64,000 nucleotides of DNA from a virus. Lineage: Duplodnaviria > Heunggongvirae > Uroviricota > Caudoviricetes. The stretch is taken from the IMG/VR virus record IMGVR_UViG_2909314774_000001. One strand, given 5' to 3'. The position numbers and the translations under genes were made by a program. Below are positions 8,729-56,226 of the stretch, piece after piece. The first letter of the stretch is position 1. Each line of letters opens with the position of its first letter. The notes under the pieces were generated by a model. It saw only the letters and a list, made by a program, of their open reading frames with translations. It was not told the DNA's origin and ran no database searches.

Positions 8729-8791
8729 GACCTGCTTCCGTATGTATTTAATAAGTTACTTATTATTTGTATATACAGAAGCAGGTCTTTT
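8729..8791. terminator. Long palindromic element / putative bidirectional terminator
   Basis: Stem GACCTGCTTC...GAAGCAGGTC enclosing an AT-rich loop, then TTTT; a near-twin sits at 56152-56226. Confidence 0.5.
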
Positions 8792-8901
8792 AAAGACACC
8801 CACCAGAACAAGTCCCTTCCGTTTCCACTTCCAAAAACTGCCACCAGTCGCTATCATCCGCTCATTGTGATAAGTAAGTAACTACCTACCAGGTGAGCCA
8901 C

Positions 8902-9642
8902 ATGAGCCAAATCTTTTTCGATACCATCGACAACGACCAGTACGACTTCATGACAGAGTGGAATACCGCTGTTATGGACAAGTGGGTTGCTGAAAACATT
9001 GGTTTGTCGCGCTGCAAAGACGAGGCTGAACTGTTTGAGACGAAGTGGTTTGATTACCGCGATATGCATCCTCTCATGGCCACCTGTCTGTTTACGGAGG
9101 CATACAAACGTCAGTACTCAAATATCATGCTGACGCACGGTCGTGAACACTTTGAAACAGCTCCGTTCACCACCGGGTTAAAACGCTTGCCTTATCAGGA
9201 GTTGTCGACTGCTAATAAAACGTCGCTATGGAAAGCACGCCAGTTTGCGGATCGCTATTGCTGCTCATACGACTACTTTATCTCCACTGTTCTTTCCGCA
9301 GCTGCACGACGTCTGTGGGACAAGCTGCCTCGCCCACAGCATTTGTGGCAGCCAGAACTGATTGAGATATTTGAAGAGAAATTAGCCAGACGCGCAACAA
9401 CCCGTCTGGATGACTCTCTGGTTAGCTTTAAGCATATGGGAGACATGCAGTTCAACCCGATTCAGGAAAGCTATTTTGAGTGGATTCTGGAGCGTTTGCG
9501 CACCATCCCTCGCAGCAAGCGCATACGCGCAATTTTCTCCGCTATCTGGCTAATGGAAATCGTTCCAGAGCGCCTTATTTCCGACCACTTTCCAGAAGAA
9601 CTGGAAGAAGCACGGCGGTTTATTGATCCCCTATCTAATTAA
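8902..9642 (+). CDS. Hypothetical protein
   Basis: ORF with AGGTGA RBS 5 nt before ATG 8902; no recognisable motifs. Confidence 0.5.
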   Translation: MSQIFFDTIDNDQYDFMTEWNTAVMDKWVAENIGLSRCKDEAELFETKWFDYRDMHPLMATCLFTEAYKRQYSNIMLTHGREHFETAPFTTGLKRLPYQELSTANKTSLWKARQFADRYCCSYDYFISTVLSAAARRLWDKLPRPQHLWQPELIEIFEEKLARRATTRLDDSLVSFKHMGDMQFNPIQESYFEWILERLRTIPRSKRIRAIFSAIWLMEIVPERLISDHFPEELEEARRFIDPLSN

Positions 9643-9685
9643 CTAATACTAGAAAACAATTTGTTTAAAAAACAAAGGAAAGCAC

Positions 9686-11026
9686 ATGACCGAACTTTGC
9701 CATACAGGACGCGGGCTGTCCGAAGAGTTTGATGAAGATTTCCAGAACAGACTGACGGCATATTTTTGTCGTGATCACGAGTTTCTTACTCGTGCGGGAG
9801 ATCTGGTTGTGCCTAGCCAGTTTGCCAATGCGGCCAATGCCATATTGGTTAATATGGTTTCGGGCTATTACCGTATGTACAAGAGCGCGCCCTCTTCATC
9901 TGCAATTCTGGATATGCTTAAGCGTGCGAAACGCGATAAGACTATCCGTGAGGAACTATTCGCCGATGTTGTTGCTGCGTTTAAGCGCATTCTTGCAGAA
10001 AAATTGTCCGATACCTCGTACATGGTTGACCAGGTATCAACCTTCGCAAAAAGTGTAGCGTTTGATGATGCTCTGATTAAGGCTGCTGAACTGAAAGAGA
10101 AAGGCGACTTTCAGGGGGCGATGGCAATCATGGCCAAGGTTCAGCAGATTGGATCGAACGAAGCGACCGGAATCTATGACTACTACACCTCCGCAAGTGA
10201 GCGATTGAAAGCGCGTGAATATGAGGCTTCAGAGGAGTATGTACCAAACAGTATTACAACTGGACTCCCTCTTCTCGATAGGTTGCTGTACCAAAAAGGC
10301 TGGGCAAAGCGCGAAATGGTGCTCTTCATGGGGTTCGCTAAATCCGGTAAATCGACCGCAATGGGTGAGTTTTCCATAAACGCAACGCTTGCTGGCTACA
10401 ATGTTCTGTATCTCTCGCTGGAGGTTCACACCACCATTTTATCCGACCGTTTTGATGCAAGATTGTCGGAGACAGAAATGTCCAAGCTGGTGGAACGGCG
10501 CGATGAGGTTCATCGTAAGTTGGCAGAGTTGGGAGCCACGAAGGGGATTGGTAGTTTGTGGGTGGTTGAGCGTCCGTCAGGAAGTATGTCACCGGCAGAT
10601 CTGGACCGTATGCTTAACAGCATGAAAGCCAACGGCATGGTACCTGACATGGTTGTTGTCGACTACGCAGATTTGATGCGTGCCAGTTATGACCTTCGTG
10701 ATGATCGCGCCAACATTCGTAGTATCTACACCGATTTACGTGCTCTTTATGACAAGCATAACGTTGCTGGGATCACGGCATCGCAGACAAACCGTGAAGG
10801 TGGAGCGTCAGAAGTTGCCACAATGATGCACGCTGCCGACAACATCGAAAAAGTACGTATTGCTGACCTGGTAATAACGATCAACAAAACCGAAGAAGAA
10901 GAAGCGAAAGGAGAGGCTCGTCTCTACTTTGCTGGTTCACGTAACCAGCAGGGAGGGATCAGCATTCGCGTTAAACAAAACCTCGAACAAATGCGCTTCA
11001 TTGAGCGAATCTTAGACGTTACCTAA
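9686..11026 (+). CDS. DnaB-family replicative DNA helicase
   Basis: Walker A GFAKSGKST and RecA-like C-terminal domain; conserved AAAGGAAAGCACATG start context. Confidence 0.85.
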   Translation: MTELCHTGRGLSEEFDEDFQNRLTAYFCRDHEFLTRAGDLVVPSQFANAANAILVNMVSGYYRMYKSAPSSSAILDMLKRAKRDKTIREELFADVVAAFKRILAEKLSDTSYMVDQVSTFAKSVAFDDALIKAAELKEKGDFQGAMAIMAKVQQIGSNEATGIYDYYTSASERLKAREYEASEEYVPNSITTGLPLLDRLLYQKGWAKREMVLFMGFAKSGKSTAMGEFSINATLAGYNVLYLSLEVHTTILSDRFDARLSETEMSKLVERRDEVHRKLAELGATKGIGSLWVVERPSGSMSPADLDRMLNSMKANGMVPDMVVVDYADLMRASYDLRDDRANIRSIYTDLRALYDKHNVAGITASQTNREGGASEVATMMHAADNIEKVRIADLVITINKTEEEEAKGEARLYFAGSRNQQGGISIRVKQNLEQMRFIERILDVT

Positions 11027-11107
11027 AAAATAAGCGTGGAGAACACCTCCACGCTTGATTCATTGGTGAAACAACTTTTCTTTTGCCAAACCACAAAAGA
11101 AAAACAC

Positions 11108-54726: not shown

Positions 54727-54752
54727 AGGATAACGCGCCCTGAGTTTCCCGA

Positions 54753-55055
54753 TTATCGAGAACTGTTCAGGGAGTCTGACATCAAGAGCGCGGTAGCCTT
54801 TTTTAATATTTCATTTTCCATTTCAATACGTTGTAGCTTTTTCCTGAGCTCACGGATTTCAATTTGTTCCGGGGTAATAGGGGAGGCTTTTGGTGTTTTT
54901 CCCTGCCGCTCATCACGTAATTGTTTCACCCATCGCGTCATTGTGGAAAGGCCGACATCCATAGCGCTGGCTGCATCTGCCACGGTGTAATTCTGGTCAA
55001 CGACCAGTTGAGCGGATTCGCGTTTAAACTCTGCGCTGAAATTTCTTTTTTTCAT
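54753..55055 (-). CDS. IS911-like transposase OrfA (HTH)
   Basis: [29 protein letters not shown]... closely matches the IS911 OrfA sequence as I recall it. Confidence 0.9.
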
Positions 55056-55536
55056 TATGGCACCTGTGTTGTTCTGAGGTGAGCATATCACCTCTGTTCA
55101 GGTGGCCAAATTCAGTAAACCACTTCAGAGACACCTTCTCACAGAAAAGAAGGCTACAAGTAATAGTATTAAGATTGCTTTAATGAGCAATCCAGAAAAA
55201 CCGTATCCGCTTAACACTGCGTCAACTCAGGCTGGGCAAATGATGGCTGTATTTCCAGCGACAGGAATTGCCGTTAGAGGCGGTGGAAATCTAACATTGA
55301 ACGAAGAATCACCGATCGTTAAGAAGTTTGTCGCGGAGTACACTATTGGATGACGTTCCCCTACTGAAAATAAAGCCCATAGAGAGCTTTATAGTGCTGG
55401 GTAAGCCAATCACATACCCAGCACCACAAAAACGCGCCAGAGAGCTTCTCGTTTGCATTTCTGGCGCGTTTTATTTGATTGCCAGACATAAAATCAAATG
55501 CAAAAATAGGTATTTACTTACCTATCGAGAAAGAAG

Positions 55537-56130
55537 ATGATTGCAGCCGAAAAAATCAAACAGCGAAAGCGCGACAACTCTCTTCGTGACCTCTGGAGAA
55601 CACCTGACTGGCTGTTTTCTGCCATTCAACGTTATCTTGGAGTGACATTTGATGTTGACGTTGCCTGCAACAAGGACAATGCAAAGCTGCCTAATTTCAT
55701 AGGCGTTGAGCGTGATGCTTTGAAATCTGAATGGGGACAGCCAGGTACAATTGCCTTCCTCAATCCACCCTACTCCAAAATCTCCCCCTGGATTGATGCG
55801 GCTATACGTGAGCAGGCTCGCGGAGTTACAACAGTGATGCTAATTCCTCAATCCCTAGATACAAAGTGGTATGAGCGTGCAACAGAGTGTGCGAATGAGA
55901 CGATTATTCTGTCTGGTGGCCGCGTAGCGTTTGTCGAGCCTGACGTCAATCTGGGTCAGGTAGAAGTAAACATCAACCCAGGTGGCAGTATGCTCGTTGT
56001 TTTTCGAGGATTCTGTCAGGACGCTGGGCACTCTATAAGCAAGATCCCTTTGGACGTCATGAAAAGTCTGGGAGGGTATGATCCTGCGAATGTGATCAGG
56101 AAAAAAAGACCATCAAAGAAGGCTGCTTAG
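55537..56130 (+). CDS. DNA N6-adenine methyltransferase (phage Dam-like)
   Basis: Catalytic motif NPPYS with the upstream W.TPDWLF segment typical of small phage adenine methyltransferases. Confidence 0.7.
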   Translation: MIAAEKIKQRKRDNSLRDLWRTPDWLFSAIQRYLGVTFDVDVACNKDNAKLPNFIGVERDALKSEWGQPGTIAFLNPPYSKISPWIDAAIREQARGVTTVMLIPQSLDTKWYERATECANETIILSGGRVAFVEPDVNLGQVEVNINPGGSMLVVFRGFCQDAGHSISKIPLDVMKSLGGYDPANVIRKKRPSKKAA

Positions 56131-56151
56131 TTTGTTCTGGCGTCTGTAATT

Positions 56152-56226
56152 AGCCTGCTTCTGTATATATAAATAACTACATATTAATTATTAATATACG
56201 GAAGCAGGCTGTTTTGTATCAGAGAC
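56152..56226. terminator. Long palindromic element / putative terminator (twin of 8729-8791)
   Basis: Stem AGCCTGCTTC...GAAGCAGGCT around an AT-rich loop containing TGTATATATA, followed by GTTTTG. Confidence 0.5.

Follow-up and report, generated by a model that had tools for sequence, protein, structure and literature searches.

We analysed a 64,000-nucleotide stretch of viral DNA (Caudoviricetes; IMG/VR record IMGVR_UViG_2909314774_000001; hereafter the window), which carries two similar palindromic elements, hairpin A after a KAP-family NTPase gene and hairpin B after a Dam-type methyltransferase gene. The best reading of these elements makes them two members of a set of three paralogous terminator-plus-promoter modules that punctuate SSU5-type phage-plasmids. 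On balance, and with a little more than even confidence, we favour a module that acts as a one-way intrinsic terminator or insulator followed by the promoter of the next operon. By sequence comparison the window is an SSU5-group phage-plasmid of Escherichia. It is most similar to phage CMS-2020a, Cyrano (the pLF82 plasmid of E. coli LF82) and PhiR41_1, and SSU5 itself is ~80% identical to it. The hairpins and their upstream genes are as follows.

8729 to 8787, + strand: hairpin A, 59 nt, with GC-rich basal arms ACCTGCTTC / GAAGCAGGT and an AT-rich upper stem
8788 to 8795, + strand: short T tract of A, TTTTAAAG, abutting hairpin A on the coding strand
56152 to 56210, + strand: hairpin B, 59 nt, with arms AGCCTGCTTC / GAAGCAGGCT and an AT-rich upper stem
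56211 to 56219, + strand: T-rich tail of B, GTTTTGTAT, abutting hairpin B
7014 to 8720, + strand: open reading frame (ORF) for a KAP-family P-loop NTPase (PF07693, 25.8 bits against a cut-off of 20), accessory cargo between the par genes and hairpin A
55537 to 56130, + strand: ORF for a Dam-type N6-adenine methyltransferase (PF05869, E = 2.5e-38), a core gene of the family

In both hairpins the common arms CCTGCTTC/GAAGCAGG flank an AT-rich centre, and TGTATATA is found in each. The arm motif CCTGCTTCNNTAT has four exact matches in the window, which are the four arms, plus two chance matches with one mismatch; these six matches at one mismatch or fewer compare with 0.84 expected, and six was reached in 0 of 100 shuffles. 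By RNA folding, hairpin A has -28.3 kcal/mol (z = -6.9) and hairpin B -32.1 kcal/mol (z = -6.1), with 0 of 200 shuffles as good in either case, and folds of -28 to -32 kcal/mol are obtained whichever strand is taken. The predicted stem is ~26 bp and mostly A-U. Aligned with each other, the copies match at 52 of 59 positions as reverse complements and at 48 of 59 in direct orientation, and the alignment of their flanks scores 9.0, about 3 sd above shuffles, which average -3.8 (sd 4.3). Hence, chance likeness of A and B is excluded, since the motif counts and the folds both beat shuffles. An earlier note on this DNA had described palindromes with a common stem and an AT-rich loop at both places and had proposed a pairwise alignment of the copies and their flanks; shuffles, folds and alignment agree with it. 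A generic search of the window for GC-clamped AT-rich palindromes returned A, B and one more, at 38864-38952 in the presumed plasmid origin. No Rfam 15 family matches the hairpins at the gathering threshold, a permissive threshold gives only generic microRNA-precursor hairpin models, and we searched the literature and found no description of these hairpins.

Both hairpins are stable GC-containing stem-loops just 3' of a gene on the transcribed strand, the arrangement looked for in a terminator. The distance from stop codon to hairpin is 9 nt at A and 22 nt at B, and all genes adjoining both hairpins are on the + strand. Hairpin A is followed by CTTTTAAAG and hairpin B by GTTTTGTAT, each with 4 T. 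Among relatives, the 9 nt after the hairpin hold a mean of 5.9 T on the + strand and 3.9 on the - strand at site A (22 variants), and 4.8 and 3.9, respectively, at site B (32 variants). The bidirectional terminators suggested earlier do not fit this layout, in which the flanking genes all point one way and the T tract is found only on the + side.

Transcript data from a close relative bear on site A. Cyrano is 98.9% identical to the window across this site, and in RNA-seq of its overnight culture the values are 49.8 for parA, 89.1 for CYRAN_29 and 54.6 for CYRAN_30, and 6.2 for CYRAN_31, the first gene past hairpin A (PMC9928086 supplement). In the other conditions the log2 values are ~10 upstream of hairpin A and 2.6-3 downstream (PMC9928086 supplement). 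This is a drop in RNA across site A of ~9-fold overnight and >100-fold in the other conditions (from the PMC9928086 supplement). The hairpin is the sole strong structure in Cyrano's 193-nt site-A spacer. Hence, indirect but good evidence places the end of par-cargo operon transcription at hairpin A, since the RNA drop coincides with the only strong structure of the spacer. We infer that hairpin A itself causes the drop and that sites B and C (the third site, below) also terminate transcription; in the Cyrano lysogen both of these are silent on both sides (PMC9928086 supplement). The terminator role first proposed for A and B alike is supported at site A, where hairpin, coding-strand T tract and RNA drop come together, and is plausible at site B.

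A pattern scan of IMG/VR for both arms gave at least 120 loci. Sorted by flank similarity, the 122 matches listed comprise 51 at site A, 28 at site B and 43 with neither flank; 41 of these 43 lie in a common third context, which we call site C, and the remaining 2 belong to a divergent relative within this family. Site A lies after the par/cargo genes and before the replication genes, site B after dam and before the next operon, and site C between a small conserved gene and terS, ~30 kb upstream of A and outside the window. All three copies are present on several contigs of ~100-114 kb. By the Cyrano annotation, the block from C to A holds structural, lysis and par genes, that from A to B replication, recombination and nucleotide metabolism genes, and that from B to C the remaining genes. 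Orthologous site-A hairpins stand behind different genes in Cyrano and SSU5. The twin pair of ~60 bp described earlier is real in both copies and incomplete as a description, because the family has three sites and the repeated unit is ~140 nt.

We also gathered loci through the Dam protein, an unbiased sample that is independent of the arm-pattern search (63 distinct sequences), and found a hairpin 3' of dam in every relative so sampled, down to 61% Dam identity. The elements are in essentially all relatives searched; the absence from carriers of the same genes that would have counted against the earlier note was not seen. The dam gene occurs throughout the relatives, to as low as 61% identity, and on 720 PLSDB plasmids; hence, it is a core gene and not an accessory one.

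The stem sequence drifts with distance, to arms CCTGCTTTCG / CGAAAGCAGG in Klebsiella, GCCTTGCTCCCATA / TATGGGAGCAAGGC in Xenorhabdus and AGCCGTGTTCCCATA / TATCGGAGCACGGCT in Morganella. In an RNAalifold consensus of 21 diverse sequences the 8-bp basal stem is kept, and 5 of its 8 pairs have compensatory double changes. Hence, the palindrome is under selection, since basal pairing is kept through changes on both sides. Over nine lineages the hairpin has a mean pairwise identity of 77%; the spacer beside it has 46-57% and the 3' end of dam 71%. A separate pattern search with the Xenorhabdus arms returned site B only; it misses the other sites of that lineage because one arm has decayed there.

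The ~140 nt of the repeated unit take in the hairpin, the boxes outside it and, 3' of these, a paralogous spacer with a promoter-like site at its end. Its parts in the window, with the genes that follow, are listed here.

8796 to 8851, + strand: downstream spacer of A, paralogous to the spacers after B and C, with CCAGAAC at 8803-8809 and CCAGTCGC at 8844-8851
8852 to 8876, + strand: predicted promoter-like stretch of site A, TATCAT ... TGTGATAAGT, aligned with its site-B counterpart
8902 to 9642, + strand: gene 3' of site A, with its ATG at 8902, followed by dnaB at 9686-11026
56134 to 56140, + strand: left outer box of site B, GTTCTGG, degenerate, the inverted partner of the right box (GTCTGGGAG in SSU5/Klebsiella relatives)
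56226 to 56234, + strand: right outer box of site B, CTCCAGACC (CTCCCAGACC in most relatives)
56257 to 56284, + strand: predicted promoter-like stretch of site B, TAGAAC, 16 nt, TAAAAT, with CCAGACGC within the spacer, ahead of a small ORF at 56316-56546

In an alignment of SSU5, Cyrano and the window, ~60 nt 3' of the hairpin are paralogous among sites A, B and C. The outer inverted pair GGTCTGGGAG ... CTCCCAGACC encloses the hairpin at sites B and C, and the corresponding pair at site A is GTTCTGG ... CCAGAAC; some relatives have extra direct copies of the right outer box further 3' (CCAGAC-type boxes). A conserved, predicted promoter-like block, CCAG[A/T]CGC beside a -10-like hexamer, follows hairpins A and B at ~70-100 nt and is itself followed by a gene. 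The site-B block is conserved in the 63-sequence alignment, with TAGAAT as the second hexamer in SSU5. CYCCAGAMC boxes show no enrichment across the window. Hence, the polarity of the module is fixed along transcription, even though the hairpin can flip, because the spacer and promoter-like block are 3' of it and the next gene comes after them.

Such flips are seen directly. Hairpin A of the KAP lineage (the window and the IMG/VR loci that we number L048 and L118) is inverted relative to the usual E. coli copy, and its reverse complement is 2 bases off the common E. coli site-A copy. On one Xenorhabdus-type contig, the site-C copy (L222, 1120-1260) and the site-B copy (L210) have the arm variants CCTTGCTCCC and CCGTGCTC swapped left to right, a flip resembling that at site A of the window.

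At site A there is also a cargo slot, and the hairpin is its fixed right edge. Among the 51 site-A loci listed the right flank is conserved, and the 300 nt to the left, in loci with enough sequence, fall into 11 unrelated clusters; the left flank of the window recurs in only two of the loci, both of which have the KAP gene. Homology of the window to Cyrano, PhiR41_1 and SSU5 starts at ~8725-8731, the left end of hairpin A. In Raoultella the hairpin comes 10 nt after the ParG-like gene, and in E. coli the two are separated by a single additional gene, either CYRAN_30 or the KAP NTPase. Only 3 of 52 site-A loci, plus CP054387, have the KAP gene, and among the window's phage matches only one CMS-2020a record has it. 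At site A of Morganella the left arm has been replaced together with divergent cargo. At sites B and C both flanks are conserved and there is no cargo variation. Thus, of the cassette boundaries proposed for both elements, the one at A is confirmed and the one at B is not, and the description of the two upstream genes as accessory-type fits KAP and fails for dam.

The ParG-like protein is encoded after parA.

6603 to 6959: ParG-like protein, 119 aa, annotated as a RelE/ParE toxin in Cyrano and without a Pfam match

By eye this protein has a ribbon-helix-helix-like segment (SRTMSLEDEYFELLEMM...TRSDVIRAAIFHLA), and it stands beside parA from E. coli to Morganella, with 35-97% identity. On these sequence features it is more likely a ParG-type partition adaptor than a toxin.

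On the terminator-plus-promoter reading, a family-specific module of ~140 nt would punctuate a nearly wholly co-oriented genome at three fixed places. The + strand transcript of the GC-clamped AT-rich hairpin, followed by a short U tract, would halt RNA polymerase, and termination would shield a downstream, normally silent lytic operon from upstream transcription; the promoter-like site ~90 nt further on would restart the next operon. At site A, transcripts from the constitutive par promoter would stop at the hairpin. Because the par transcripts stop at A, any gene that enters between par and this hairpin would be expressed in the lysogen with the replication genes undisturbed, and the position would become a cargo slot with hairpin A as its fixed right edge. 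The copies would be kept alike within a genome by gene conversion and would flip occasionally, as palindromes do.

Several observations weigh against this reading. Site C has a mean of only 3.1 T in 9 nt on the + strand and no tract, and site B lacks a T tract in L175, L202-L207, Xenorhabdus and Morganella. The AT-rich interior reaches 50-100 nt in Xenorhabdus and Moellerella and is poorly self-complementary there, which is poor intrinsic-terminator design. A simple promoter/terminator scan, in which a terminator needs 5 T in 8 nt, called neither element, and the promoter-like blocks of A and B score below its consensus threshold. Wobble pairs in the lower stem, counted as G.U versus A.C on the transcribed strand, contradict each other between sites A (16 versus 3, + favoured) and B (10 versus 18, - favoured), with 5 versus 0 at C. 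The Cyrano RNA-seq is gene-level abundance in a relative and is informative at site A only. The hairpin is conserved above its flanks, which a plain terminator does not need. Finally, the arms differ by lineage yet agree among sites within a genome (Xenorhabdus B and C, Morganella A and B, Raoultella A and C). Lineage-specific shared arms, conservation above the flanks, absent T tracts and flips are what a plain terminator does not explain.

The within-genome likeness of the copies was examined further. In several E. coli-type genomes the A and C copies are 100% identical, and genome 2880329822 has a private sequence common to all three AT-rich interiors. In a permutation test the likeness of A to C within genomes is significant but small (0.926 versus 0.901); the corresponding A-B and B-C figures are unreliable, as the flank classifier put some reverse-strand copies at B, and the cross-lineage examples above are used instead. 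The copies are either homogenised by gene conversion or read by a sequence-specific factor. Gene conversion is plausible because the phage has its own RecA, SbcCD and RuvC homologues, and it probably explains the likeness. Copies also vary: some have one missing or decayed arm, the apex sequence is variable, SSU5-type site B and several other natural copies have 2 non-wobble mismatches in the basal stem, and in the Xenorhabdus-type locus L221 (1240-1500) the site-A hairpin is lost and the CTCCCAGAC and CACTGCGG boxes are kept.

We consider it unlikely, yet deserving of the most attention among the alternatives, that the modules are DNA-level binding sites for a putative phage-encoded sequence-specific protein. 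Such sites could be lytic origins, a dispersed centromere like that of N15 or loading sites for an antiterminator-type regulator, with termination at A secondary or partial. Arms that vary among lineages and agree within a genome are what a binding site would give, as is a hairpin that is the best conserved part of the spacer. The AT-rich and easily melted palindrome with its GC-rich arms and CCCAGAC boxes, the inverted outer boxes GGTCTGGGAG / CTCCCAGACC and the extra direct copies around the hairpin point the same way, as do the missing T tracts of site C and distant relatives and the wobble pairs without strand bias. Against this, the outer boxes are unevenly spaced on the two sides (12 nt versus 26 nt at SSU5 site B), the boxes are not enriched elsewhere in the window, the apex varies, the site-A hairpin is lost in one Xenorhabdus-type relative with one arm missing or decayed in others, and gene conversion alone can account for the within-genome likeness.

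Among the particular roles, an origin is suggested by the T4-like replication and recombination genes of the Cyrano annotation (UvsW, UvsY, a gp32-like SSB, RecA, SbcCD and RuvC); T4-type phages can use several replication origins. A centromere is suggested by the par genes adjoining site A. However, the palindrome AAACAANTTGTTT, which lies upstream of parA and of 7 other operons, is the better operator or centromere candidate, and the ParG-like protein covaries with the arms only as phylogeny predicts. We set the covariation aside as a route to a centromere, because the identities of that protein (97%, 42% and 35%) track phylogeny and are uninformative.

Also unlikely, and held with slightly less confidence, is a more active form of this idea, in which the modules are cis sites read by a co-evolving phage-encoded sequence-specific factor and control access to the three gene blocks, as barriers that can be switched or as points of entry. 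They could work through regulated read-through (antitermination), or through a DNA-level event in which the AT-rich palindrome is easily extruded. The latter could be the firing of a lytic origin, or programmed breakage, made by the SbcCD-like nuclease of the phage itself, that seeds recombination-dependent replication, and the same mechanism would drive module exchange.

It is decidedly unlikely, in our judgement, that the hairpins are elements of RNA processing or stability (RNase III sites of the T7 type or protective 3' hairpins) that would split polycistronic transcripts into module-sized pieces with different lifetimes. Long, mostly paired stems suit RNase III substrates, and the predicted fold, with ~26 bp that are mostly A-U, exceeds the double-stranded RNA length of at least ~20 bp looked for. 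Paralogous hairpins lie between co-oriented gene blocks, as in T7, and the compensatory changes are in keeping with a structured RNA. A U tract would be unnecessary, which would explain site C and the distant relatives, and the RNA drop at site A could equally be cleavage followed by decay of the downstream part. However, site B has no strand bias for G.U over A.C, the basal stem has 2 non-wobble mismatches in several natural copies (e.g. SSU5-type site B), no Rfam family matches, and processing requires neither shared outer boxes nor lineage-specific arms.

Least probable of all, and very doubtful, is that the elements are recombination substrates or footprints of miniature mobile elements, with any effect on transcription incidental. 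The window's homology to Cyrano and SSU5 does begin within ~7 nt of hairpin A, and the 11 unrelated left flanks, the Morganella left arm exchanged along with cargo, the flips in the KAP lineage and between L222 site C and L210 site B, the 100% identity of A and C in several genomes and the assembled contigs that often terminate at hairpins would all suit it. Against it, 120 of the 122 matches listed are at three orthologous positions, with no sign of mobility, the flanks of B and C are conserved on both sides and lack cargo variation, retention across genera with compensatory changes points to a selected function, and a cargo slot upstream of an operon terminator is expected without special recombination activity. 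A mobile palindromic repeat (of the MITE or REP kind) is rejected because the copies are confined to three orthologous sites, the other 2 of the listed matches being in the divergent relative.

Record ends at site C were considered separately. The records JQ965645 (SSU5) and OV696614 (Cyrano) are both linearised in the site-C loop, at the same position, between ...ACTTATTA and AATATATACGG.... Loci L128, L129, L125 and L127 were considered alongside these record ends, and contigs L161 and L199 stop at hairpins. Site C as a physical genome end was set aside, as these metagenomic contigs (L161 and L199) stop at hairpins too. The record ends are probably assembly breaks at the palindrome, the simpler reading because several metagenomic contigs end in the same way; a true packaging end just upstream of terS is still conceivable. 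We searched the literature on SSU5 packaging and found nothing.

Other repeated motifs were found in the window. The palindrome AAACAANTTGTTT has 8 copies versus 0.37 expected (at 5887, 9654, 21179, 35415, 47146, 58628, 59357 and 63898), each on the + strand and a short way 5' of an ORF start, with parA (5935) and dnaB (9686) among these ORFs; in SSU5 and Cyrano the interval from the site-C hairpin to terS also has two copies. Its appearance is that of an operator, either for a repressor or for the ParG-like protein. A second palindrome, TAAGT-N(1-12)-ACTTA, typically GATAAGTA...TACTTATC, has 6 exact matches versus 0.57 expected. Exact copies are at 12305, 15658, 23338, 34271 and 49420 and degenerate ones at 8869-8891, 13173, 18644, 30744, 40016, 55506, 57720 and 62695; many of them stand immediately before start codons, where they overlap -10-like sequences. 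A compressed TAAGT palindrome is also carried at the apex of hairpin A (8752-8762).

The AT-rich palindrome at 38864-38952 is flanked by iteron clusters at 38576-38668 and 38977-39048 (CTATAGTGG, spaced 21-22 bp), and the AT-rich region between the iterons is enclosed by an inverted repeat of 8 bp. The plasmid-mode origin presumably lies here, beside repA. An IS3-family (IS911-like) insertion at ~53900-55128, upstream of the dam region, is absent from Cyrano at that place. Its portion 54500-55127 (628 nt searched) is 99.7% identical to a copy in Salmonella phage SEN22, and homology to relatives resumes at 55129. Rfam also gave a full-length cspA thermoregulator (183 bits, 28628-29046, - strand), which implies a minus-strand cold-shock-protein gene, and three tRNA genes at 16425-16668.

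SSU5-type phage-plasmids are very common in Enterobacteriaceae, as the 720 PLSDB plasmids with this dam indicate, and they bear accessory genes that include resistance genes. If the modules are insulators, they would explain how lytic genes are kept off during plasmid life in a nearly wholly co-oriented genome of 100-110 kb. They would likewise explain why cargo such as the KAP NTPase piles up just upstream of A, where the par promoter would drive it and the replication genes would be spared read-through. The hairpins can serve as annotation landmarks and for locating cargo slots, and they help to interpret assembly breaks, since contigs and even reference records end inside them. The lineage-specific arms shared across a genome leave room for a regulated or DNA-level function, which is a real but minority possibility.

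Compared with known systems, the modules resemble intrinsic terminators in the GC-rich stem base after a stop codon, the coding-strand T tract at A and B and the collapse of RNA at A. They differ in a stem of ~26 bp whose upper part is almost pure A-T, in the same sequence recurring at three sites, conserved across genera and above its flanks with outer boxes around it, and in the absence of a T tract at site C and in distant relatives, with no call from a simple consensus scan. With REP, ERIC and MITE sequences they share intergenic, repeated, hairpin-forming sequence, whereas the copies here occupy three orthologous positions in one family and have no signs of transposition, terminal repeats or target duplications.

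Phage-plasmid N15 has dispersed centromere palindromes. The likeness is in palindromes scattered over a phage-plasmid genome with one copy beside the partition genes; in contrast, partition here involves a small ParA and a ribbon-helix-helix-like protein, not SopAB, and the palindromes are much longer and AT-rich, with the site-A copy lost in one relative. In phage T7, RNase III processing hairpins lie between the genes of long transcripts, and paralogous long hairpins between co-oriented genes are found here too. However, the stems here are near-perfect palindromes that lack the characteristic internal loop and are equally good on either strand.

Conceptually, the nearest described analogue is the composite terminator/promoter cassette known as PeSL. 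PeSL cassettes of T4-type phages are small, repeated intergenic units of a stem-loop and a promoter (PMC2839356, PMC4122927). They lie at junctions of gene insertion or replacement and have been proposed as points of genetic exchange (PMC2839356, PMC4122927). The modules described here differ in having three copies per genome at fixed positions, of which only A borders variable genes, and in their hosts, siphovirus-type phage-plasmids of an unrelated family; the two are likened by concept, and a sequence relationship is not expected. They are alike in that the modules also combine a stem-loop with a predicted promoter in a repeated intergenic unit, and in that site A, unlike sites B and C, lies at a junction of insertion or replacement.

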